This document shows, one piece after another, positions 3,353 through 40,573 of a stretch of DNA of 64,000 nt. The notes beneath the pieces were generated by a model. The model searched no databases, was not told the origin of the DNA, and worked only from the letters and a program-made list of their open reading frames with translations. Both the position numbers and the translations under genes were made by a program. Source of the DNA: Minisyncoccota bacterium (GTDB lineage Bacteria > Patescibacteriota > Minisyncoccia > Phycocordibacterales > UBA918); the NCBI GenBank assembly GCA_041389025.1, contig JAWKSP010000002.1, forward strand, positions 105,279-169,278, read 5' to 3'. Every line of letters begins with the position of its first letter. Position 1 is the stretch's first letter.

Positions 3353-5161
3353 CTAACCGGTCCAATTAAATAAAAGAATCGAAAAGTCGGTTAGATTTAC
3401 TTTTCCGTCACTGTTTAGATCGGCCGTCGTTGGTTTGTCGGCCTTTTGACCAATTCCATAGAATAGATAATCGGAAAAGCCGGCCTTGCTACCATCCGAT
3501 TGCTCAGCTTTTGCTCTGACTTTATACGTACCTGTATTGAAATCAGTAGCATCTAGAGTTGTTTTCCATGCGCCATTTGAGTCAGCTGTAACATTGATAG
3601 TTTTTAAACTTGGAGCTGATTTATCTTTCATGTTTTCAATCGTTACCTCAGAACTAGCCAAGGCGTAACCACTTATCTCAAAAGTTTGACCAGACTGAAC
3701 TGGGTCTGGATCAACTCTTATTGTTGGAGTAACAACAATATTTGAAAGAGAAGTTGTTCTGGCACCGGAAACTGTAAACGAAGTATTGAAGGTTGAAGAC
3801 TTTGTGTCATTTTTATCCAATACATAAACACCAAAGGTGTATACACCTCGGGCTATTTCATCTAGAGTTACAGAAAATATTCCATCTGCATTACCTTTCT
3901 TAGTTGCAACTTCAGTTCCATCGACCAAAGCTACTATAGTTGAATTCGGATAAGCCTTTCCGGAAATAATAACTCTACCATCACCACTTCTATAAGGTCC
4001 TTCGGATGACTCAAAACCACCACCACCGGAACTACCGCTACCGCCACCAGACCCACCACCACCACCACCACCGGAACCTCCAGAACCTGAATCACCACCA
4101 GAAGTTGGTTTTTCGCCGTCTGACGAACCTGATGTTCCTCCACTACCATCACCACTTCCGGTACCGTCATCACCACTTCCGGTACCATCACCTTCAGTTT
4201 CTCCTTCGGTATTTGAAGTTCCGGTTGGAATATCCGTCACTTGAAATTGTATAAGATAGTCATCAATATTAAAGTTTCCTTCATCATCAATACACCTAAC
4301 GTAAAATGATTGAGTGGAGTTTGGTGTGACAGAAACCACTGTAGTGTGGTAAATCAAACCGGTATTGGAAAAACCGTTGATCATAGAAGCATAGTCAGTT
4401 CCCGGAACGGTGTCGTATCGACAGAAAGCAAACTCGTCGGTTTCCAAAAATATTTCCACACTTTGTGTTACACCGGTAACTGTGGAAGATGGAGCTCCGT
4501 TAAAACGGTATGGGGGGATTTCCTCAGTAGTATCAATCGGACCCACTCCAATCTGACTTATCAGTGCGATAACGGGTTTAGCGCTAGCTACCAAACTACC
4601 ATCGTATATGTTTAAAGTCATTTTTTTTGTTCCCACCGTATCCGCATTCACAATCGGAACTATATCCGCCGGCGTAGTGGTAGTGCCGGTTGAGGTACTA
4701 TAAGTAACACTAAAGTTATTTGCCTTTGACGTATGATTGCCAATCATTAATTTTAATTGTGAGTCAGCTGATATTCCACTCGAGGTATTTAAAGTATACT
4801 TGATAAGGCCTGGTGTACCAGAAAAAATCTCTACCCCATCACTACTAGCCGACCGTGTAGCCGAAGAATTTCGCAGTACCTCGTCAACATAAAGTTCCAC
4901 GTTTCGATCAGCTGAAAATGTTGATGTGCCTAACGTTTCAAAACCAGTCGGCGGCACCACTTCAATGTAACTATTTGGTCCAATTCCGGTTTTTAATGTA
5001 AAAGAAATCGTGTGATTTGCAGCTTGGTCAGGAGCAGAGTTAGAAATTACATTTTTATAATTAATTATATTGGCGGCATTGACTTGTTCTGTTGAAAAAA
5101 ATAAGAACAAAAAACCAAAAACCAACCCAAGGAGATAAGTTTTTTTTAAAAACCAGTTCAT
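3353..5161 (-). CDS. Large secreted protein with a signal peptide, Ig-like beta domains, a long Gly/Ser/Asp linker, and a C-terminal dockerin-like calcium-binding repeat.
   Basis: Signal peptide MNWFLKKTYLLGLVFGFLFLFFSTEQVNA. The linker is GTGSGDDGTGSGDGSGGTSGSS...GGGGGGGSGGGSG. The extreme C-terminus TADLNSDGKVNLTDFSILLFNW fits the dockerin type-I repeat (D-x-N-x-D-G-x-V-N-x-x-D). Only one repeat is visible. Confidence 0.65.
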   Translation of the reverse strand: MNWFLKKTYLLGLVFGFLFLFFSTEQVNAANIINYKNVISNSAPDQAANHTISFTLKTGIGPNSYIEVVPPTGFETLGTSTFSADRNVELYVDEVLRNSSATRSASSDGVEIFSGTPGLIKYTLNTSSGISADSQLKLMIGNHTSKANNFSVTYSTSTGTTTTPADIVPIVNADTVGTKKMTLNIYDGSLVASAKPVIALISQIGVGPIDTTEEIPPYRFNGAPSSTVTGVTQSVEIFLETDEFAFCRYDTVPGTDYASMINGFSNTGLIYHTTVVSVTPNSTQSFYVRCIDDEGNFNIDDYLIQFQVTDIPTGTSNTEGETEGDGTGSGDDGTGSGDGSGGTSGSSDGEKPTSGGDSGSGGSGGGGGGGSGGGSGSSGGGGFESSEGPYRSGDGRVIISGKAYPNSTIVALVDGTEVATKKGNADGIFSVTLDEIARGVYTFGVYVLDKNDTKSSTFNTSFTVSGARTTSLSNIVVTPTIRVDPDPVQSGQTFEISGYALASSEVTIENMKDKSAPSLKTINVTADSNGAWKTTLDATDFNTGTYKVRAKAEQSDGSKAGFSDYLFYGIGQKADKPTTADLNSDGKVNLTDFSILLFNWTG

Positions 5162-5229: not shown

Positions 5230-5900
5230 TAAATTTGCCATAATTTTTGACAACCGATGATTTCAAGTGACAAACCACCGGGACTAAGGTCCGGTGGCTT
5301 CTTAATAGCTGGCGATGCCAGCATCACTTAAAGAGGTTAAATAGAGATGGTTGTTCTAGTTGATTCTTATCGTACTGATGACGTACATAACGTCGTATTA
5401 AGTGTTCGTCTAGTCCGATACTGGAGACAAAGTATCCTCTAGCCCAGAGTGAACCTCTATCATAGAGCTTATCGATGTTTTTAACTTTCTTTTTCATCCA
5501 AGCTGATGATTTACCTTTAATTATCTGCGTTACGTACGATATGGAATATCTAGGTTATGTGAGTAGTATAAGATGAATATGATCGTCTTGTATATTTAAC
5601 TCTATAATCTCCCACTGTTTCCATTTGCATATTTGATTAATAACTCTTGTTACTTCTTGTTTTATCTTTGGTTTATCCAGTACCTTACCTCGGTACTTTG
5701 GTGTCCAGACGATATGATATTTTAGATCGTAGAAACAGTGTGATAATGTTCTAATGGTATGTTTGTGGTATGACATACGTATTATGATATTAAGCGAATA
5801 AGTCCTTCCTTTCGGAATGGACTTATTCGTTATACGACGTTGTCTTTAAACGTACACCCCAGTGAGACTGGGGGTTTTTAGGGTTAATGAACTACCCTAA
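5230..5900 (-). mobile_element. IS200/IS605-family insertion sequence carrying tnpA only, with subterminal hairpins at both ends. Probably decayed.
   Basis: Y1-transposase ORF with HxH (HIHLIL) and the YHIVWTPKYR motif. Right-end hairpins at about 5245-5320 (CCACCGGGAC..GTCCGGTGG; GCTGGC-GAT-GCCAGC). Left-end hairpins at 5797-5835 (CGAATAAGTCC..GGACTTATTCG), 5857-5874 (CCCCAGT-GAG-ACTGGGG) and 5883-5904 (TAGGGT..ACCCTA). Confidence 0.6.
5324..5776 (-). pseudogene. tnpA: IS200-type transposase tnpA (Y1 HUH transposase) interrupted by an in-frame TAA at 5555-5557.
   Basis: N-terminal part (5776..5558) reads MSYHKHTIRTLSHCFYDLKYHIVWTPKYRGKVL...DDHIHLILLT, then TAA. The same frame continues PRYSISYVTQIIKGKSSAWMKKKVKNIDKLYDRGSLWARGYFVSSIGLDEHLIRRYVRHQYDKNQ, which is the conserved C-terminal half of IS200 TnpA. 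The stop sits exactly where a hydrophobic residue is expected. Confidence 0.65.
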
Positions 5901-5928
5901 TGCAGAGCATGCGGGGTAAAGATGGAAT

Positions 5929-7737
5929 CTAATCCAATAAAAAACCTCCGGATTGATGTTGCCACAATTTAGCATATACTCCGTTTGCATCTTTAAGTTC
6001 GGTGTGTTTCCCGTCTTCAATTATTTTCCCTTCTTCCAAAACAATTATTCGGTCCATTTCCCTTAAAGTAGAAAGTCTGTGAGCAATGGCAATTACTGTT
6101 TTCCCTTCCATCAGATTATGAAGAGCTTTTTGTATAAGAATTTCACTTTCACTATCGAGAGCTGAGGTGGCCTCATCTAATATAAGTATTGGAGCGTTTT
6201 TAAGCATTGCTCTAGCTATGGCTACTCGTTGTTTTTGACCACCGGACAATTTCACTCCACGCTCTCCTACCAAAGTATCATAACCCTCCGATAATTTACT
6301 GATAAATTCGTGAGCATGGGCTTGTTTCGCCACTTCGATAATCTCTTCGTCAGTAGCATTTGTATTACCGTAAGCAATATTTTCTCTTATCGTCCTATGA
6401 AACAAAGCCGGTTCTTGTGGTACCACGGCTATATTTTGCCTTAAAGAATCCTGTGTTACTTTTGAAATATCTTGTCCATCGATTTTTATTAAACCAGAAT
6501 CAACGTCATGTTGGCGTAAAAGCAATGACACAAAAGTAGACTTACCAGCTCCGGACGAACCAACCAACCCAACTCTTTGACCACCCTCTATACTTAAGTT
6601 AAAACCTGTAAAAACTTCATTATTCTCAAACTGAAACGACACGTCGTTCCAATCAATTCTTCCATTATTTACCACCATATCTGTTGCATCTTTGACATCC
6701 ACAATTTCGTGATTTACTAGTAAATCATCAAGGGCCTCCTGTAACTCACCAATTGTTTTAGCCATAGCATTAAAAGCTCTACCTATAAATATAAGTGATC
6801 CAGAAATATTAAATATTAAAGCCGCTACCATCACAAAATCACCAGTACTTATTTCTCCTAACGACCACTTGTTAGTAACTAACCAGAAAATACTAAAGGA
6901 AAAAGTAAATAATATAAAAGTATTGATAATTAATAACTTTTCTGTATAAAACCAATTATTTTTATGTGCTATCCTTCGTTTATCAGTTAATTCTTTTAAA
7001 TCATTTATCTCTTGTTCGTACTTAGTATATTGTCTAACTGCACTTATATTTGTTAATCTATCAATTATTCCTCCACCTAGTAAAGTATTAGCCTCTGAAC
7101 TTATTTTTGAAAGCCTAGTTTTCTCAGGAGCAAGTTTTTTATTTGTAAGATAAAGCACAAATATCAAAATTATGAATAAAAAAGATGATGTGCCATCTAC
7201 TGAAAATATAAGTGAAAAAGTAACTAAAAAGCCAACAAATGAAGCTAGTTGGGCCCACAAAAAATCAGGAATAATTTCATCTACAGCTCCTATAATGTTT
7301 CTCAGTTTACTTGAAATTGAACCAGCAAATCTATTCGAGTAATATGAATGACTATGTTTAAAAATATACGAATTAACGGTGTCTACAGCCGTTTTTGCAG
7401 TTTTTGTTGTCCAATTTGCAGCTACAAAACCACTTAAACGATAAGTTGCTTGTATAACAAATAATGTAAGTGGTAATACTACACCCCAAAACATTGCTGA
7501 TTTTGTATCACCTTTTTCTGCAGCATCAACTATAAGTTTAAAAATATAGCTTGTACCAGAACCAACTGAAGAAGCAATTATTACCAAAAAAATAGCCGAA
7601 AAAGCCCAAATCTTATGAGGTTTTGATGAATACACAAAAAACCGCCACGGAGTTTTGGGAATAGTATTTTCTTTTTCGTTTATTGTTTTATTCATAAAGT
7701 AAATTAACGCCTTAATCAGCGCTATTTTAATATACAC
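5929..7737 (-). CDS. ABC exporter, fused permease plus ATPase (MsbA/multidrug type).
   Basis: N-terminal 6-TM domain. Walker A GSSGAGKST, ABC signature LSGGQKQRVAIARA, Walker B ILILDEATSALD. Confidence 0.9.
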   Translation of the reverse strand: MYIKIALIKALIYFMNKTINEKENTIPKTPWRFFVYSSKPHKIWAFSAIFLVIIASSVGSGTSYIFKLIVDAAEKGDTKSAMFWGVVLPLTLFVIQATYRLSGFVAANWTTKTAKTAVDTVNSYIFKHSHSYYSNRFAGSISSKLRNIIGAVDEIIPDFLWAQLASFVGFLVTFSLIFSVDGTSSFLFIILIFVLYLTNKKLAPEKTRLSKISSEANTLLGGGIIDRLTNISAVRQYTKYEQEINDLKELTDKRRIAHKNNWFYTEKLLIINTFILFTFSFSIFWLVTNKWSLGEISTGDFVMVAALIFNISGSLIFIGRAFNAMAKTIGELQEALDDLLVNHEIVDVKDATDMVVNNGRIDWNDVSFQFENNEVFTGFNLSIEGGQRVGLVGSSGAGKSTFVSLLLRQHDVDSGLIKIDGQDISKVTQDSLRQNIAVVPQEPALFHRTIRENIAYGNTNATDEEIIEVAKQAHAHEFISKLSEGYDTLVGERGVKLSGGQKQRVAIARAMLKNAPILILDEATSALDSESEILIQKALHNLMEGKTVIAIAHRLSTLREMDRIIVLEEGKIIEDGKHTELKDANGVYAKLWQHQSGGFLLD

Positions 7738-26523: not shown

Positions 26524-27726
26524 TTATGTATTTTTATTCCAATCAAAACGGAAAAATAAACTATTAAATCTATCTCTTATTGACTTAGTAAAGAAATTTT
26601 CTTCAACTACCACTGGATAAAAATTTTCACTTTGCCCAGAAGGAAGACCATCATCGTCAGTATTATCGTTTTCGTCGTTAGAATTCCCTGGGTTTGAGTC
26701 ATCATTATGATCATCATCATTACCATGACCGTTATTACCTTTTGGTATACATGGTTTGCCATTTTGATCTACATATTCTTGTCCTAAAGCTTCGTATTTA
26801 ATCTGCCCAGAAGGAAGACCCTCATCGTCAGTATTATCGTTTTCGTCGTTAGAATTTCCTGGGTTTGAGTCATCATTATGATCATCATCATTACCATGAC
26901 CGTTATTACCTTTTGATTTTAATTTACAATAATTTTGTGGCGGTACTTTTTTATCACAAGAAAAACCTTCATTATATTTAGCTTGTACTGCTCGCAAGGA
27001 AACATCAACTGTCATTGAATCAGTTTGGCTTTCGTTACCCATCATTTTTCCGTCACAATTAACTTCTGCCGTATCAGTATTTACCATCAAATCTCCAGCA
27101 CACCATAATATACCCACATAATTAACCGAACCAGCCTTACAATAATTACCAGAATTAGAATAAGTGTTAGCTACAGCGTAAGTAGTACTAGCCAATAATA
27201 CATTAGCAGTTTTTGTACTGGTACCAAAAATTATCCTTTCACCAACCTCAAATTTATTGTCTCCATCGTCTTGCCAAGCAAAAAATTGTAGGTTTTGTGA
27301 TAATTCTCCACCAACTTCAGTATCCACCAATCCTTCCGGCTCGTTTGTACCATTTTCATGATCTTCTAAGTTGCTAAAATCAAGGCAAACATAAGCATCA
27401 TTCTTTTTTACATGCAAACTAATCAAATGTTCTCCTAAGTCACCTGGTTTAACATCATTAAAATTGAAAAATTTATCTGCTTTTGGTACTAGATTTTTAG
27501 CTTCCCAAGTAAGTGACGGTTGCAAAACACCATTATAAATTGCTTTACTTTCTACTGTTAGTTCTAATCCGGTTTTTTTATCTTTAGAATTATTATCTTG
27601 ATAATTACCGGTAGCAAAAGTGTAGCCGGCGTTAGCTCCGCTAACGCCGGCTACCACCAACAATAAAACTACTACTCCAACCAAAAGTGAAACTTTAACT
27701 CCTTTCTGGTAGATAAAACTTGTCAT
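26524..27726 (-). CDS. Secreted TasA-like paralogue. It shares the FNFNDVKPGD..ISLHV..NDAYVC...ENGTNEPE core with the other paralogues. It contains a duplicated 57-aa His/Asp/Asn-rich module.
   Basis: Core homology to the three upstream paralogues, including LGNESQTDSMTVDVSLRAVQAKYN. The N-terminus ...VAGVSGANAGYTFATGN is atypical. Confidence 0.7.
   Translation of the reverse strand: MTSFIYQKGVKVSLLVGVVVLLLVVAGVSGANAGYTFATGNYQDNNSKDKKTGLELTVESKAIYNGVLQPSLTWEAKNLVPKADKFFNFNDVKPGDLGEHLISLHVKKNDAYVCLDFSNLEDHENGTNEPEGLVDTEVGGELSQNLQFFAWQDDGDNKFEVGERIIFGTSTKTANVLLASTTYAVANTYSNSGNYCKAGSVNYVGILWCAGDLMVNTDTAEVNCDGKMMGNESQTDSMTVDVSLRAVQAKYNEGFSCDKKVPPQNYCKLKSKGNNGHGNDDDHNDDSNPGNSNDENDNTDDEGLPSGQIKYEALGQEYVDQNGKPCIPKGNNGHGNDDDHNDDSNPGNSNDENDNTDDDGLPSGQSENFYPVVVEENFFTKSIRDRFNSLFFRFDWNKNT
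26635..26919. repeat. 171-bp tandem direct repeat, about 1.7 copies and over 95% identical, inside gene 26524..27726.
   Basis: The unit starting CCCAGAAGGAAGACC at 26635 recurs at 26806. It encodes KGNNGHGNDDDHNDDSNPGNSNDENDNTDD(E/D)GLPSGQ twice. Confidence 0.85.
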
Positions 27727-27788
27727 GTAATAGTTTTTTTAGACTTTATACTACTTTAATGATTAATTTACTAAACCTTTTTTTAAAC

Positions 27789-29168
27789 TTAATTTGGTAT
27801 AACCGCACAGTTAAGTGCACTAATAGCATCTAGGTCATAACCATCGGCGGTTGCTTCAAATGGTGCTCGTGGTGATACGTCAGTTATTCTTACATATTTG
27901 GCCCAAGACAAACCAGAGCTTGCTAAATCAGCTTCTGAGTCACGATCTACACTAGCGGTTACTAAATACCAATCAAGCCCATCCTGACTTACCTCAATTT
28001 TAATTTTTTCTACCGGATAACTACTACCACCAGTTACTTCCCAAGCTCGCAAATCATTACCTGGCCCATCCACTATATAACCATCATCAAACTCAACTGT
28101 AATCCACCCTCCTTCAGTCTCGTTTTCATCTGGGTTAAAACCAAGACTAAAGAAGCTATTTGGTACAACTGGATTATCAAATGGTGTACCAAGACTTTGT
28201 GGAGCACCGATTACGTAAGATTCCACTGAACGACCAGCGTCTACTGGAGCACCATTTTTCTTTACTCCCTGTGACACTGCTATTACCTTGGTGGCGTATG
28301 ATTGTTCTGGTGTACAAGCCACTTGATTTGGTCTACATACAAAATCAGAATTATGTCGCGCTTGTACCGCACTAAATGACACATCTGCAGTTAAAGAGTC
28401 GGTTTGACTTTCGTTACCAAGCTTCGCTCCACTACATAGAAATCCTCCATCAGCTGGTTCACCCGCTTCTCCGTTATTATCGTTATCGTCAGCTGGACTC
28501 CATTCGTCCACCTCACCATCCTGATCTAAAGCTTGTGGTTCCATATCACCAAAACACCATGCTTTACCAATATAATAGGTCTCAGTTCCATTTATAGGAC
28601 CACCAAGAGCATTTTCATTCCAAATGTTAGTGTTTGAGTCGGCTAGCGCGATTGAATATGCTTGACCAATCGGTAGAGACCCAATTGGGGCTGGACCGGA
28701 AATTATCTCTTCATCATCCTCATAGACATTATCACCATCGTCAGCCCACCAAATGAAGTTTACCAAACCAGCCAACTCACCTTCGTCATCATCGATTGTT
28801 TGGTCAACCAAAGCCTCCGGCTCTGTTTGACCATTTTCATTATTTGAAGTTAGGGTTACATCAGCACAAACAAAAGAATCATTATTTTCTACGTGGATAG
28901 AAATAGTATCTTCACCATAATCCCCTGGCTTCACATCATCAAAATCAAAGAATTTTTCAATGGTTAAATCTTTCTTTTCCCATGATGTATTGTCGTTAAA
29001 AAGACCATTGTAATAGCTTTCGTTGTCTATCAGCAAGTCAATTGCTCCGGCGGTAAAGATGTTGTCGGTGGAGTTTTCTGTATCATTAAAAAAAGCTTTA
29101 GTCACCCCAAAAGCCGTAACACTGGCGGTTACCAAAATCATTGCCAAACTTAGAAAAATACGTCGCAT
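27789..29168 (-). CDS. Secreted TasA-like protein with a SipW-cognate signal peptide and a C-terminal beta-sandwich (galactose-binding/discoidin-like) domain.
   Basis: N-terminus MRRIFLSLAMILVTASVTAFGVTKAFFNDTENSTDNIFTAGAIDL. Core FDFDDVKPGDYGEDTISIHVENND. The C-terminal domain ...GGWITVEFDDGYIVDGPGNDLRAWEV...WAKYVRITD...ADGYDLDAISAL is called from its pattern only. Confidence 0.7.
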   Translation of the reverse strand: MRRIFLSLAMILVTASVTAFGVTKAFFNDTENSTDNIFTAGAIDLLIDNESYYNGLFNDNTSWEKKDLTIEKFFDFDDVKPGDYGEDTISIHVENNDSFVCADVTLTSNNENGQTEPEALVDQTIDDDEGELAGLVNFIWWADDGDNVYEDDEEIISGPAPIGSLPIGQAYSIALADSNTNIWNENALGGPINGTETYYIGKAWCFGDMEPQALDQDGEVDEWSPADDNDNNGEAGEPADGGFLCSGAKLGNESQTDSLTADVSFSAVQARHNSDFVCRPNQVACTPEQSYATKVIAVSQGVKKNGAPVDAGRSVESYVIGAPQSLGTPFDNPVVPNSFFSLGFNPDENETEGGWITVEFDDGYIVDGPGNDLRAWEVTGGSSYPVEKIKIEVSQDGLDWYLVTASVDRDSEADLASSGLSWAKYVRITDVSPRAPFEATADGYDLDAISALNCAVIPN

Positions 29169-29278
29169 AATCAGATTTCTTAATTATTAAATTAAATATT
29201 TTTTAATTTATAAAGCCCCCCAGCTAATAATCTTAATAAATTTATAAACTCAACGCGCTGATTCCCCTTTTCAGCCCA

Positions 29279-29307
29279 CTGAACATCTTAAACTTTAAGA
29301 TGTTCAG
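29279..29307. promoter_or_regulatory. 29-bp near-perfect palindrome, CTGAACATCTTAAA-C-TTTAAGATGTTCAG, in the intergenic leader between two tasA-like genes. Candidate operator or attenuator hairpin.
   Basis: Two 14-bp perfect inverted arms. It is embedded in a leader element conserved with the region 30860-30920. Confidence 0.45.
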
Positions 29308-29330
29308 AACGGCTAAATATAATCAGTTTT

Positions 29331-30812
29331 TTAGTTAATTGGGCAATCTGCCAAACCAGCTAAAATATTTTCAAGATCAGAAAACTCAGCGGCTGTAAAG
29401 TAATGAGCTGGTGAAGTAGCAATACCTTCTAGGAAAGTATTATTTACTCCATCACCAATACCAACTACGTATATAGTAGTACCGGCAGCTTTAGCGGCGT
29501 TAGCAGCTATTACAGCTGTTCCTTCGTCATCTGGTACACCATCAGTCATGATAAGCATAAAATCCGGTGCTTCTAAGACATCATCCCGGTCGCGTACACC
29601 AGAAAGCTCGGTTGATGCTAGACTAATACCAGCAGCTAGATTGGTAGTACCCCCTGAAGACAAGGCGTCAATAGCGGTATTGATATCAGCTAACACGTCA
29701 GTCAATTGTGAGTTTAAGGTAGCACCAAAATCAAAGTCCACCACACCAATGTGGTTGCCAGGGGTAGCTGGGGCTAATGCAGAAGCAAAAGCTTTCGCTG
29801 CAGTAGACATAACCCCTAACTCAGCAGGACTAATGCTACCTGATGAGTCAAGTACAAACACTACGTCATTTTCTTCGTTACAAGCCAATCCTCCATCTCG
29901 CTCATCACAAACAAAGTTTGGATTATTTCGAGCTTGTTCAACTCGAAAAGCAATATCAGCTGTCATACTGTCTGTTTGAGCTTCGTTCTTCATAGTTGAG
30001 CCATCACAAGTAACAGTTCCTTCAATTGAGGCGTCGATAGTACCAGCACACCAAGCTAACCCAATATACTGTGTAGTAGCCCCAGGGAAAGGAGTACCAG
30101 TAGTTGAATCTGCCAAAGTATAAGTTCGTCCACCAAGTACATCACTAGCTGGCCCAGAAACATTTGAGAATAGTTTTGGTTCTCCAGTCTCCCAAATATT
30201 GTCTCCATCATCAGCCCACGCAAAGAAAGTCATATTTTGAGCCAACTCTCCATCAAAATCATCGTTATTGTCCTCCGCCACGTCACCACTTTCAAGTTCC
30301 GGCTCAGTTGAAGAGACATCATCATTTTTAGTAATATCTACATCAACACACATCCATGCATCGTTATTTTCAACGTGTAATGAAATAGTGTTTTCACCGT
30401 TATCACCTGGTTTAACATCTTCAAAATCAAAGAAAGTATGAACTCCATCTTCAAGATCAGTCAAAGACCAAGTTCCAGCACAAGCATCACCAGCTTGTGG
30501 GACGTTAGCTGGGTTGGCAGTGTTGTAAGCAGTGTTGGCTGTGTCAATATCTTCACCATCTTTTAGTGCCAAATGAGCTGGTGTATCACCTTCTTCTGGC
30601 ACCCATTCAATAATATCTTCATCAGTCCAAGCACCATCAAAACAAACCAAACCATTGATATGCGCTACGCTGTCAACTTTTAGATCTAAAGCACCGGCGG
30701 TAAAGACGTTACCGGTAGAAGTCTCGGTGTCAGAGAAGAAAGCTCCAGTACCAGAAGCGACCAAAGCGACCGCAAATACGATCATTCCTAGACTTGTAAC
30801 AATTTTTTTCAT
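29331..30812 (-). CDS. Secreted TasA-like protein with a SipW-cognate signal peptide and a C-terminal von Willebrand factor A (vWA) domain carrying a MIDAS motif.
   Basis: N-terminus MKKIVTSLGMIVFAVALVASGTGAFFSDTETSTGNVFTAGALDL. The vWA part is VVFVLDSSGSISPAEL... (D-x-S-x-S MIDAS) ...MIMTDGVPDD...IYVVGIG. Confidence 0.8.
   Translation of the reverse strand: MKKIVTSLGMIVFAVALVASGTGAFFSDTETSTGNVFTAGALDLKVDSVAHINGLVCFDGAWTDEDIIEWVPEEGDTPAHLALKDGEDIDTANTAYNTANPANVPQAGDACAGTWSLTDLEDGVHTFFDFEDVKPGDNGENTISLHVENNDAWMCVDVDITKNDDVSSTEPELESGDVAEDNNDDFDGELAQNMTFFAWADDGDNIWETGEPKLFSNVSGPASDVLGGRTYTLADSTTGTPFPGATTQYIGLAWCAGTIDASIEGTVTCDGSTMKNEAQTDSMTADIAFRVEQARNNPNFVCDERDGGLACNEENDVVFVLDSSGSISPAELGVMSTAAKAFASALAPATPGNHIGVVDFDFGATLNSQLTDVLADINTAIDALSSGGTTNLAAGISLASTELSGVRDRDDVLEAPDFMLIMTDGVPDDEGTAVIAANAAKAAGTTIYVVGIGDGVNNTFLEGIATSPAHYFTAAEFSDLENILAGLADCPIN
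30690..30812. repeat. Copy B of a roughly 125-bp duplicated gene 5' end, 2 mismatches from copy A at 32450..32572.
   Basis: Base-by-base comparison shows only 2 substitutions. It encodes the identical signal peptide MKKIVTSLGMIVFAVALVASGTGAFFSDTETS. Confidence 0.9.
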
Positions 30813-30922
30813 AGCTATTTATTATTTGTAAAGTAATTAATTTTTTACTAAATATCATGCTGTCCCCTCCAGCCCGCCAAATTCCAGCCACCAGACTGAA
30901 ATTCGGAACGGCTGAGTAGGAT

Positions 30923-32572
30923 TTAGTTGTGCGGAAAAGCACTCACTTCTTCAGGTATAAAGTCAACCTCGTCTGTGCCACCAGTTTGAGCAGCTCCACC
31001 ATTTGGACCCCAGAAGTTGTTAATAGCGTTAACATTTCCTGCTAAGGCGCCATAGGTATTTAACATTGTTCCATCCAAGAAATTATTGAACTGCACAGTG
31101 GCTGGATTCGCATCGTGTGTCGAATCTGCCCCAACAGCTTCTGAACCAGGTACTGTATGTTCAAATTCATTGTATTGAACAGTTACTCCATTAAGTCCAC
31201 CAATACCGGCAGTGTTACCGTCGATGTCGTTATACTCGATTACAATAGTTCCAGTGTGTGGATTGGTGTAAATACCAGTTGTTAAATCGTGAATATGATT
31301 TCTAACAATATCTACATTTGAATAGGTAGCAGCGGTTACTGTCTCAACTCCACGTGAACTAGCCTCACTTAAACCATCAATGTCGTTGTAAGAGACTTCA
31401 ACGTTACTTAAATCACCATTAAGGTAAACAGCAGCGTTGGTTCCCAAGAAAGAACCTGGATTAATCACAAAACCAGTAAGTGTCACATCATCTGCCTCAA
31501 TAATCACACCGTTCTGGATGGTAGCTGTATTAGTCGGGCCATTCACAGAAGCTAGGGTTAACGGTTTATCAATAGTCACTGTTTCATCATAGCTACCGTC
31601 CCCAACACAAACAACGTCACTTGGTGTAGCACTATTAACCGCATCTTGAATTGACTGACTATCATCAGCTACCGTAACGTCACAACTTGGTGCCACATAG
31701 TCAGACAAGGATGCTCCTACCAGTTGACGTGGCTCTTGCCCTCCATCAAGTGGTGGTAAAGAAGCACATCTAAACGCATCGTTGTGACGAGCTTGCACCG
31801 CATGGAAAGCTACATCAACTTCGATACCATCGGTTTGAGCATCATTATGGTCGCCTTGCGCGCCAGTACAAGCAAATCCGGTATTATCAACAGTCGGTGC
31901 CCCATAATCATCTTGAGGCACTGCATCAGGTGAAATATCACCAAAACACCATCCTTTTCCAATGTAAGCGGTTTCTCCACCAGAGAACGGTTCGTCACCT
32001 GACTCAGCCAAAGCTAGCCAGTTACCTGTAAAGATTTCACTTGAAAGACCACTTAAAGCGTCGATGATTTTTTCATCATCTTCCAAGACATTGTCTCCGT
32101 CATCGTGCCAGAAAAGGAAAGAAAGATAATTTTGCAGCTCTCCTTCGTCAGCGCCGGCTGTGTTATCAACGTCCACTTCTGGCTCAGTCTGATCATTTTC
32201 CGGCGTTCCGGTCAAGTCAAACGCCATACAGGCATAAGCGTCATTGTCGTTCACATGCAAGGAGATAGTATCTTCACCATAATCCCCCGGTTTTAAATCA
32301 CGGAAGTTAAAGAAGAGCTGATCCGTCAAATCAGACAACTCCCACGAATTACTGTCGTTTGGTCCCCATACACCAGTCGCCTGATCTAGCGGGATAGCTG
32401 GGTTATTCCAATCAAACCCATAGCTGGAATTATCAATCAAAAGATCAATAGCTCCGGCGGTAAAGACGTTACCGGCAGAAGTCTCGGTGTCAGAGAAGAA
32501 AGCTCCAGTACCAGAAGCGACCAAAGCGACCGCAAATACGATCATTCCTAGACTTGTAACAATTTTTTTCAT
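30923..32572 (-). CDS. Secreted TasA-like protein with a SipW-cognate signal peptide and C-terminal right-handed parallel beta-helix repeats (pectate-lyase/NosD-like).
   Basis: Same N-terminus as the downstream paralogue. Core NFRDLKPGDYGEDTISLHVNDNDAYACM. The C-terminal part has repeated V/I-x-N-x-I segments: VTLTGFVINP, VEVSYNDIDG, DIVRNHIHD, IVIEYNDIDGN, VTVQYNEFEH. Confidence 0.75.
   Translation of the reverse strand: MKKIVTSLGMIVFAVALVASGTGAFFSDTETSAGNVFTAGAIDLLIDNSSYGFDWNNPAIPLDQATGVWGPNDSNSWELSDLTDQLFFNFRDLKPGDYGEDTISLHVNDNDAYACMAFDLTGTPENDQTEPEVDVDNTAGADEGELQNYLSFLFWHDDGDNVLEDDEKIIDALSGLSSEIFTGNWLALAESGDEPFSGGETAYIGKGWCFGDISPDAVPQDDYGAPTVDNTGFACTGAQGDHNDAQTDGIEVDVAFHAVQARHNDAFRCASLPPLDGGQEPRQLVGASLSDYVAPSCDVTVADDSQSIQDAVNSATPSDVVCVGDGSYDETVTIDKPLTLASVNGPTNTATIQNGVIIEADDVTLTGFVINPGSFLGTNAAVYLNGDLSNVEVSYNDIDGLSEASSRGVETVTAATYSNVDIVRNHIHDLTTGIYTNPHTGTIVIEYNDIDGNTAGIGGLNGVTVQYNEFEHTVPGSEAVGADSTHDANPATVQFNNFLDGTMLNTYGALAGNVNAINNFWGPNGGAAQTGGTDEVDFIPEEVSAFPHN
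32450..32572. repeat. Copy A of the duplicated gene 5' end. See 30690..30812.
   Basis: Near-identical to 30690..30812. Confidence 0.9.
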
Positions 32573-32951
32573 AACTAAGATTTTGTTATTAATTATTTAA
32601 TTAAGTTTATAAATTCACCACGAATTTTGTTAAAAACGCTGGAGACAAAACCAACCATTAAACGTTTTGTCACCCATAAGGAATAGTGTAAACCGTCTGA
32701 CACAAAGCTTTAAATCGTTCAATAGTTACCTGAAGCAACTAAAAACTTGACAGTCTTTTTGTGGAAAACTTTTAATTAAATTGCTAGAAATAAAAATACT
32801 TTAAAAAATAAACCTGTTGATAAAGTGTAGATAAACTATGCATAACCTCTGTATAAAGTGTGGATTTCGGGTTAATAAAATGTTTATTGTAAAAATACGA
32901 CACAATTTTGTAGAGAAGTAAATAATTTTTTTGGTTTTTTTGAGTAATTTG

Positions 32952-38882: not shown

Positions 38883-40538
38883 TTAATACATACCTCCACC
38901 CATTCCGCCCATACCACCCATATCAGGCATACTAGGCTTTTCTGGTTCCGGCTCATCGGCTACCGCACACTCACTGGTCAAAAGTATCCCCGCTGCTGAA
39001 ACCGCATGTTGCACACCAGCTCTTTCCACCTTTACTGGGTCAATAATACCGGCTTTTATCATATCATCTATCATTTCGCCTTTAGCAGCATCAAATCCAG
39101 CGTTACCACCCGCCTCTTTAACTTTTTGTACAATTACGGCTCCGTCAATTTTACCGGTGTTGTCGGCAATTTGTTTTAATGGCATTTCGAGAGCTTTAAG
39201 TACGATACTATAACCAATTAATTCTTCTTTTGGTAAATCTTTCTTAGATAAAATATCTTTTTCTACTATAGCTGCTGCTCGAGCCAGTGAAGTACCACCA
39301 CCTGGCACAATTCCCTCTTCAATCGCCGCTTTAGTAGCGTTTACTGCGTCTTCTATTTTTAGCTTCAAATACTTCATTTCCGTCTCAGTGGCGGCTCCTA
39401 CTCTTATCACCGCTACTCCACCAGACAACTTGGCAATTCTTTCTTCTAATTTTTCTTTATCAAATTTAGATGAAGTGTTTTCTAGCTGTGATTTTAGAGC
39501 TTTTACTCGATCTTCAATCGCGCTTTTTTCACCGGCTCCCCCAACTATCACTGTATCCTCTTTACTGGAGACTATCCGATCAGCTTTTCCAAGTTGTGAT
39601 AATTCAGTGTTTTCTAGTTTTAAACCTAAATCTTCTGAAATAACCTGTCCACCGGTGGTCACAGCAATATCAGACAATATCTCCTTCTTGCGATCACCAT
39701 AGCCAGGAGCTTTTACAGCTAGAACAGAGAAACCACCCTTAAGTTTATTCACCACAAAAGTTGCTAAGGCCTCACCCTCTACATCATCAGCAATAATCAC
39801 TAATTCTTTTTTTCCAGTCTGAGCGATTTTTTCTAACAACGGTAATATTTCTTGAACTGAAGAAACTTTTTTGTCGGTAATAAGAATCTGAGCGTCCTTG
39901 TACTCAGCCTCCATTCGCTCCGGATTAGTAACCATATATGGAGAAACATACCCCTTATCAAACTGCATACCTTCAGTCAGCTCAGTTTCAATACCGAAAG
40001 ATTGCGATTCTTCTACCGTTACTACTCCATCTTTTCCTACTTTATCAATCGTTTCAGCGATTTTTTCACCCAACTCAGCACTTTCAGCTGAAATGGTGGC
40101 TACTTGTTTGATCTCATCAACTGAATTTATTTTAGTAGACATTCCTCGCAACGCCTCGACCACATCATTTGAAGCATGCTCCATACCGGCTTTTACCGCC
40201 ATAGAGTTGATACCCATAGTAGTTTGTTTTAAACCCTCGGTTACTAAAGCCTGAGTTAAAACTGTCGCGGTAGTAGTACCGTCACCGGCCAATTCATTGG
40301 TTTTATTAGCTACTTCTTTGATAATCTCAGCTCCCATATTCTCAAACTTATCTTTAAGAGAAATTTCTTTAGCTATAGATACACCATCGTTAGTAATAGT
40401 TGGTCCACCATACCCTTTATCCAAGACCACGTTACGTCCTCGTGGACCAAGAGTAACTTTTACTGCATTAGCTACAGTATCTACTCCTTTTTGTAGTTTT
40501 TTCTTTACTTCTTCACCATAAATTACTTCTTTTGCCAT
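38883..40538 (-). CDS. groEL: Chaperonin GroEL (Hsp60).
   Basis: [40 protein letters not shown]... with the C-terminal [11 protein letters not shown] tail. Confidence 0.97.
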
Positions 40539-40573
40539 ATCTTTATTTCTTCTTTACTACTTAATTAAATAAA

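Follow-up and report, generated by a model that had tools for sequence, protein, structure and literature searches.

The window analyzed here, a 64-kb stretch of DNA, holds ordinary chromosomal genes, among them those for BipA, GroEL, RNase J, and a P-type ATPase. Its GroEL gene (38883-40553) encodes a product 100% identical to NCBI entry MEZ4104393.1, from a Candidatus Paceibacterota MAG. The present work concerns a 768-bp spacer between two genes of the minus strand. The upstream neighbor (5929..7737, minus strand) encodes an ABC exporter, with Pfam matches to ABC_tran (E 9.5e-36) and ABC_membrane (E 1.2e-15). The downstream neighbor (3353..5161, minus strand) encodes a secreted surface protein with a Pfam Big_6 match (E 9.3e-07) and a low-complexity Gly/Ser linker. 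The spacer is occupied by an IS200-type element of about 620 bp (5267..5886), also on the minus strand, so that exporter, element, and surface-protein gene all point in the same direction. A first, sequence-only reading of this DNA had placed the element between a dockerin-protein gene and the ABC exporter. Its location was right, but the dockerin label is not supported: at E ≤ 0.001, Pfam detected no dockerin family in the surface protein, only the Big_6 Ig domain.

The element carries a Y1/HUH transposase frame, tnpA, which on translation comprises 150 codons plus a TGA stop (5776 to 5324, minus strand). Its ATG lies at 5776-5774, its natural TGA stop at 5326-5324, and its conceptual product begins MSYHKHTIRTLSHCFYDLKYHIVWTPKYRGK. 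The minus-strand orientation of tnpA amends the sequence-only reading. Translation bore out the earlier description of a frame intact except for one in-frame TAA at 5555-5557, and both TnpA peptides quoted there are present exactly as given. Profile searches were run with the 150-aa conceptual product bearing X or S at codon 74. This product matched Pfam PF01797 (Y1_Tnp) with 119.7 bits (E 1e-34) over profile positions 2-121 of 121, and the NCBIfam equivalog NF033573 (transpos_IS200) with 129.2 bits against a cut-off of 55. Because the Y1_Tnp match crosses the TAA without a change of frame, the lesion is a single nonsense codon and not the accidental juxtaposition of two ORFs. A database search returned 760 homologues of TnpA, nearly all of about 150 aa, and the best solved structures were PDB 2ec2 (E 7e-23), 2f4f/2f5g (2e-20), and 2a6m/2vhg (E 3.7e-18). 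Alignment with 2a6m/2vhg equates the HUH motif H66-I67-H68 (5573..5581, minus strand), upstream of the TAA, with H64/H66 of IS608 TnpA; alignment with 2a6m equates the catalytic Tyr130 codon (5387..5389, minus strand), downstream of the TAA, with Y127. The columns of the HUH motif and of Tyr130 are invariant in the relatives aligned. The profile matches and the structural relatives together establish the similarity to IS200 TnpA on which the earlier assignment to an IS200/IS605 Y1 transposase depended.

No tnpB was found in the element, whose only ORFs of family size are the two halves of tnpA. Judged by these sequence features, the element is a tnpA-only IS200-group insertion sequence of the IS200/IS605 family. 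An autonomous element would have an intact transposase frame, and this one is interrupted by the TAA at codon 74; the family assignment is unaffected. The locus is better annotated as an IS200/IS605-family pseudogene or non-autonomous IS than as two small ORFs.

We located the boundaries of the element by comparison with its relatives, since similarity to at least 20 other copies starts and stops there. In addition, the contigs of several relatives break exactly at the element ends. On the right side, similarity stops sharply in 19-20 copies after ...GGTGGT(C/T)GTTTAC, where the window reads ...GGTGGTTTGTCAC, and the last base of the element is therefore 5267. On the left side, similarity starts about 12 nt before the first hairpin, which puts the first base at about 5886. 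The right end is fixed to the base, whereas the position of the left end is uncertain by some 2-4 nt. No inverted repeats join the two termini, and no direct repeat or target duplication flanks the element. Within the 64-kb window, neither a second copy of the element nor a repeat of its hairpins was found.

Both ends carry subterminal hairpins. The left-end hairpin, IP_L (5857..5873, minus strand), reads CCCCAGT-CTC-ACTGGGG, and its helix is 97% paired in 19 copies, with changes on both sides in four of seven pairs. The right-end hairpin, IP_R (5275..5297, minus strand), reads CCACCGGAC-CTTA-GTCCCGGTGG. Its 3' arm contains an extra C, one of 5280-5282, which is private to the window copy and missing from 19 of the 19 other copies; the arm is thus GTCCCGGTGG in the window and GTCCGGTGG in all 19 others. 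Two further stem-loops belong to the element. One lies in the 5'UTR, 19 nt before the ATG (5795..5829, minus strand), and has an 11-bp perfect outer stem together with an inner stem; in relatives, changes on both sides are seen in nine of the 12 pairs of this helix. By analogy with Salmonella IS200, this stem-loop may occlude translation initiation. The other follows straight after the tnpA stop (5308..5322, minus strand; GCTGGC-ATC-GCCAGC), with 100% of cells paired in 20 copies and both-side changes in three of six pairs. A 30-nt stretch of 73% complementarity between the 5'UTR (5812-5841) and the region near Y130 (5389-5418) was also considered but is taken as chance, its core ACGTCGTAT being unmatched by eye in the related locus L001.

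These structures were evaluated by folding and by covariation. Folded as single-stranded DNA, the left end (125 nt) gave z = -7.0 and the right end (71 nt) z = -5.3, and none of 200 shuffles folded as well as the element ends. In end alignments built from the flanks of 19-20 copies from other genomes, 98.8% of cells at the right end form standard pairs, with seven pairs changed on both sides, and at the left end the values are 91.2% and 15 pairs; at each end, 0 of 500 shuffles were as good. For the subterminal hairpins at the two ends, 97-98% of cells are paired, with compensatory changes, in the 19-20 copies. When partners were slid by 1-3 columns as a control, pairing fell to 13-52%. The flanking hairpins thus recur at other copies and with compensatory changes; a failure to recur would have refuted the sequence-only reading. 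The earlier statement that both end hairpins are retained was correct as to their presence on both flanks, but the right one, with its extra C, is not pristine.

In IS608, a guide 5' of each hairpin pairs with a cleavage tetranucleotide, AAAG with TTAC at the left end and GAAT with TCAA at the right end (PMC5934647). At the right end of the window element, the corresponding guide is GAAG (5298..5301, minus strand; clade consensus AAAG), which covaries with the terminal tetranucleotide TCAC (5267..5270, minus strand; clade consensus TTAC). These four are the last bases of the element, and conservation ends there in 20 copies. The variants at this end are matched: AAAA/TTAT in L010 and L013, GAAA/TCAT in L002, and GAAG/TCAC in the window copy, L001, and L023. 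Columns 91/122 hold G-C in 17 copies and A-T in three (L002, L010, L013), while columns 88/120 hold A-T in 17 copies and G-C in three, so that two guide/cleavage column pairs covary perfectly across 20 of 20 sequences. From this matched covariation, we conclude that the right end follows the IS608-type family rule, here seen as natural covariation obeying the IS608 base-pairing scheme.

The left end offers a less direct picture. A putative left guide, AAAA (5875..5878, minus strand), is recognized by positional homology with the right guide, and its role is assigned on the model of IS608 (PMC5934647). The three bases AAA immediately 5' of the left hairpin do not vary, and the guide is AAAA or TAAA among the copies. 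Just outside the element lies a putative target and left cleavage tetranucleotide, TCAT (5887..5890, minus strand; clade consensus TTAT), which emerges from the pattern of junctions. With ^ marking the junction, the left end reads TTAT^TA in the clade and TCAT^TA in the window; across independent insertions, it is semi-conserved as T[TAC][AG]T^T(A), and the contig starts of L003, L010, and L014 agree. The expected sequence of the empty site would be ...GGGTAGTTCAT^TTGAAATCATCGG.... No clear signal of covariation was seen between the left guide and the putative target. On the strength of the junctions, we propose a TTAT-like tetranucleotide as the left-end target.

We then considered the origin and effect of the stop. 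The in-frame TAA at codon 74 (5555..5557, minus strand) derives from an ancestral TCA (Ser) by a C-to-A change on the coding strand. The aligned codon is TCA in five of the five nearest copies with DNA (L001, L002, L016, L021, and L023), which makes the TAA a single C-to-A change private to the window copy. Of 120 homologues, 89 have Thr and 21 have Ser at position 74, and Ser is also the residue in the closest relatives P0242 (95% identity), P0241 (93%), P0001 (92%), and P0002 (87%). A stop at codon 74 is absent from all 23 related loci. The TAA falls six codons past the HUH motif and 56 codons ahead of the catalytic tyrosine, and the HUH motif and Tyr130 are consequently not in one polypeptide as assembled. 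Two papers on IS608 describe an active site built in trans, with HUH supplied by one monomer and Y127 by the other (PMC3597680, PMC5934647). Translation of the window copy would end after 73 residues, keeping HUH and losing helix alpha-D with Tyr130. Since a 73-residue product without Tyr130 could not be an active transposase, the product of tnpA as assembled is, by its sequence, most likely inactive, and a copy so truncated could not transpose itself. We assign a probability of roughly 0.8 to the reading that the locus is a defective, tnpA-only IS200-group copy in a Candidatus Paceibacterota MAG, with TCA changed to TAA at codon 74 and its cis-acting ends mostly retained.

The remainder of the tnpA frame carries little trace of decay. 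Against L001, its dN/dS is 0.031 (0.016 for codons 1-73 and 0.037 for codons 75-150), and against L016 it is 0.019. Window TnpA deviates at two columns that are at least 95% conserved, and at least two such deviations are found in 24% of intact homologues. Relaxed selection after the stop was not detectable by dN/dS or by deviations at conserved columns. The low dN/dS and the lack of excess deviations at conserved residues imply that nearly all of the divergence accumulated under transposase-type selection. These values, together with the lack of excess private changes, support the option of a very recent nonsense mutation, which the sequence-only reading gave beside sequencing error and population heterogeneity. 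They fit a lesion that is recent relative to the divergence from the sampled relatives, a bound that is loose because synonymous sites are saturated against the nearest relatives (dS about 1.8). The nonsense change would then be the first step of ordinary IS decay.

The clade to which the element belongs is found mainly in Patescibacteria MAGs, and its identity to tnpA genes annotated as IS200/IS605 on plasmids from cultured bacteria does not exceed about 47%. The nearest intact copies are P0242/L023 (95% aa identity), P0001/L001 (92%), and P0002/L002 (87%), and two of the nearest relatives, L016 (95%) and L021 (94%), both from Parcubacteria bacterium OLB19, are frameshifted. At the DNA level, the nearest relatives are only about 84% identical to the window copy. 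They are the same element end to end, with the same hairpins, a TGA stop (TAA in L002), and TCA at codon 74 throughout, but they sit at unrelated insertion sites and carry either no lesion or a different one, an 11-nt deletion. This frameshifting deletion is common to the two OLB19 copies, which differ from each other at seven of 375 bases and in their flanks, a pattern suggesting that duplication is still possible after a copy has become defective. Elsewhere in the clade, L019 has a nonsense codon at position 48 and L022 is truncated. Counting the window copy, L016, L021, L019, and L022, about five of 24 copies are defective. Pseudogenized copies are routine in this clade, and genomes as small as these appear to harbor defective ones commonly.

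Several other explanations of the stop and of the element were weighed. In one, the TAA would not be fixed: it would come from faulty base calling or consensus building in the MAG, or be one of the alleles of a polymorphic population, with the element being wholly or partly an intact, active IS200. The sequence source is indeed a MAG consensus, the tnpA frame is, apart from one base, indistinguishable from those of functional relatives, and the one further private lesion alters the length of a C run by a single base, the type of change that homopolymer errors produce. Moreover, the low level of decay fits an assembly error or a polymorphism just as well as it fits a recent mutation. Against this, the window is free of other signs of error: it contains 47 long uninterrupted ORFs, and none of six adjacent ORF pairs is a split gene, each pair representing distinct genes. 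The frequency of defective copies in the clade also speaks for a true lesion. Substitution errors are rare in consensus assemblies. Scans of metagenome DNA for the sequence around the stop and the left-end hairpin gave no match, exact-protein look-ups with the N-terminal TnpA fragment, both neighboring proteins (the exporter with two start choices), and the identical GroEL led to no contig, and within this scope a second assembly of the same genome was not found. An error or an unfixed allele appears unlikely to us, and, on prior grounds, we infer that the stop is probably a real nonsense allele rather than an assembly error.

A programmed stop, in which readthrough or recoding would hold transposase levels low in a manner comparable to the frameshift control of IS1 and IS3, is hardly credible. 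IS200 expression is very low, but a stop at codon 74 is found in neither the related loci nor the homologues, two other defective lineages bear different lesions, and TAA is the commonest stop codon of the host. Nor was a recoding signal found, and Rfam yielded no IS200-related or other RNA family, its one chance match (E 0.41) falling below the gathering score. Among the 47 ORFs of at least 150 aa in the window, TAA is the stop in 27, TAG in 19, and TGA in one. Reassignment of TAA in the host was considered as well and rejected, given that TAA terminates 27 of these 47 ORFs. Genes of the window contain no internal in-frame TGA. A literature search on rare TGA stops or IS200 in Patescibacteria returned nothing useful.

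The element might also have been exapted, that is, a dead IS might be kept for its structured ends, which would serve as a terminator or insulator between the exporter and surface-protein genes. Both subterminal hairpins do resemble terminators when read on the plus strand, and the IS lies in the middle of three co-directed units. However, none of the relatives shares the insertion at the orthologous position, every other copy lies between different flanks, and the tnpA frame shows transposase-type purifying selection instead of drift. Such selection marks the copy as having been a normal IS until recently, and we judge exaptation to be very improbable. The idea that the element is a REP-associated tyrosine transposase (RAYT, or TnpA_REP) rather than a mobile IS draws on a weak match to NCBIfam REP_Tyr_transpos (NF047646), but its score of 33.9 bits is far under the cut-off of 80 and compares with 129 for the IS200 model. 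In addition, no REP-like hairpin repeats occur elsewhere in the 64-kb window, and many genomes carry this unit, bounded by the same pair of ends, at unrelated loci, leaving this idea a nearly negligible probability.

Taking the window copy, then, as a defective IS200-group element, we asked what its parts could still do. Single-strand "peel and paste" transposition, the mode of the family, can be ascribed to the element by homology with IS608 as its probable mode of movement. Under the scheme established for IS608, a TnpA dimer would bind the subterminal hairpins on one DNA strand, and the guide 5' of a hairpin would pair with the 4-nt cleavage site. A single-stranded circle would be excised and then pasted 3' of the target tetranucleotide. 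Apart from the extra C in the right hairpin, the cis-acting parts are retained: both end hairpins, the GAAG guide with the TCAC terminus, the stem-loop ahead of the ATG, and the hairpin behind the tnpA stop. At best, an intact relative could mobilize the window copy in trans. The proteins of this genome are in the protein database, as the entry identical to its GroEL indicates, which gives the scope of the search for such a relative. No intact sibling TnpA was detectable among the annotated proteins of the genome, and the best from any source was 95% identical (ENA). MAGs often lose repeated elements, which makes the lack of an intact sibling a weak argument.

The insertion point is also informative. 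Directly 5' of it, 3' of the ABC exporter stop, lies a host hairpin (5892..5919, minus strand; -12.6 kcal/mol, z = -2.5) that resembles a weak terminator. Of the 17 loci of the clade for which sufficient sequence upstream was available, 15 have a stable host hairpin with a T run that stops 0-5 nt short of the left end. The mean fold z was -3.5 upstream versus -1.3 downstream, both means taking in the artefactual rows L010 and L019. As a rule, the flank on the downstream side opens with T's, and the flanks are T-rich on both sides. Adjacency to terminator-like hairpins has been reported to be strongest for IS200/IS605 (PMC13548323), and the present locus illustrates at base resolution this published statistical association of the family with terminators lying upstream. 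Reading these observations jointly, we tentatively suggest, as a possibility somewhat less probable than its converse, that the clade may target T-tracts after terminators by means of its A-rich guide (AAAA/TAAA) and a TTAT-like target, and that defective copies that retain their ends, the window copy and the OLB19 pair among them, may be mobilized in trans. If this were true, the window copy would be a dormant, still mobilizable element behind the exporter terminator and not a dead relic.

The significance of the locus itself extends little beyond its annotation. Of modest use are the side results, through which the ends, the hairpins, and the guide/cleavage pairs are now defined for an IS200 lineage centered on Patescibacteria.

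Among known systems, the element is closest in organization to IS200 of Salmonella and E. coli and IS1541 of Yersinia (~0.7 kb), which, like this element of about 620 bp, consist of tnpA only, with about 150 codons and no tnpB. The left end is likewise IS200/IS1541-like in having one hairpin close to its tip and another stem-loop immediately ahead of the start codon, and neither those elements nor the window element have inverted terminal repeats or a target duplication. The window copy differs from IS200 and IS1541 in its distant sequence and in its nonsense codon. The IS200-type TnpA proteins of Sulfolobus (2ec2, 2f4f/2f5g) align over nearly their full length, including the loop that holds codon 74, although they are archaeal and have Pro where the window clade has Ser or Thr.

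The comparison with IS608 of Helicobacter pylori concerns mechanism. Protein similarity between IS608 TnpA and window TnpA is modest (E 3.7e-18), but H64, H66, and Y127 align with H66, H68, and Y130. IS608 also carries tnpB. At the right end of the window element, the inferred cleavage site lies about 8 nt 3' of the hairpin, and at its left end the putative site lies about 12 nt 5' of the hairpin; IS608 differs in this respect, its cleavage distances from the hairpins being 10 and 19 nt. IS608 and the window clade both have subterminal hairpins at either end, on the strand with the sense of tnpA, and a 4-nt guide lies 5' of the hairpin foot, a putative one at the left end of the clade; covariation of the guide with the cleavage site in the window clade is seen at the right end only. 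Whereas the right-end pair of IS608 is GAAT/TCAA, the right-end pair of the clade, AAAG/TTAC, is identical to the left-end pair of IS608.

The right-end guide of the element covaries naturally with its terminal tetranucleotide. In an alignment of the right-end flanks of the IS copies, in which columns 88-91 hold the guide and columns 119-122 the cleavage tetranucleotide (window 5298-5301 and 5267-5270, respectively), we found the guide/terminal tetranucleotide pairs AAAG/TTAC, AAAA/TTAT, GAAA/TCAT, and GAAG/TCAC. The commonest of these right-end pairs in the clade is the one that IS608 uses at its left end as guide and cleavage site. A separate stretch of the element, 5812-5841 in the 5′UTR, is 73% complementary over 30 nt to the part of the tnpA coding sequence that surrounds the codon for the catalytic tyrosine (5389-5418). 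We took this complementarity to be due to chance, since by visual inspection its core is unmatched in the related locus L001.

For a gene of this host, tnpA has an unusual stop codon, TGA. Among the 47 ORFs of at least 150 aa in the window (1-64000), 27 end in TAA, 19 in TAG, and only one (114-740, + strand) in TGA; translation termination there hardly ever relies on TGA. Genes across the same 64,000 nt contain no in-frame TGA, even though the trinucleotide itself is frequent (2468 occurrences on both strands). A literature search for the rarity of TGA as a stop yielded no explanation. Elsewhere in the window, four tandem paralogous genes of 405-558 aa lie at 26524-32596 (− strand), and they contain repeat families spaced by about 1.48-1.88 kb. 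The first of the four had no Pfam match; together they probably constitute a surface-protein gene family.

Several related loci lie at contig boundaries. The contigs of L001, L005, L010, and L023 end exactly at the right end of the element, those of L003, L010, and L014 start exactly at its left end, and the entire L010 contig consists of the element alone (625 bp). Breaks of this kind are typical of assemblies interrupted by repeats and suggest that the IS is multi-copy in the genomes concerned. Two copies from the Parcubacteria bacterium OLB19 genome, L016:307-745 (JZEL01000031) and L021:3-372 (JZEL01000006), carry an identical 11-nt frameshifting deletion (AAACAAGAAGT) and differ at 7 of 375 bases; their flanks are unlike. 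Judged from these sequences, the shared deletion within dissimilar flanks implies that the copy was already defective when it was duplicated, by either mobilisation in trans or recombination. Decayed copies of the same clade also occur in Saccharibacteria MAGs, one (L019:61-501) interrupted by a nonsense codon at position 48 and again by a premature stop close to the C-terminus, the other (L022:1501-1677) truncated after residue 59.

Of 17 related copies of the IS, 15 are preceded, at a distance of 0-5 nt, by a stable hairpin of the host with T's after it. Such left flanks were found at L002, L004-L009, L011-L013, L015, L018, L020, and L023, and at window 5892-5919; the right flank of related copies usually opens with T's as well. 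The insertion site thus looks like the T-tract of intrinsic terminators. Terminators are enriched upstream of IS200/IS605 elements (PMC13548323), and the hairpins and T's preceding the related copies here are consistent with that enrichment.
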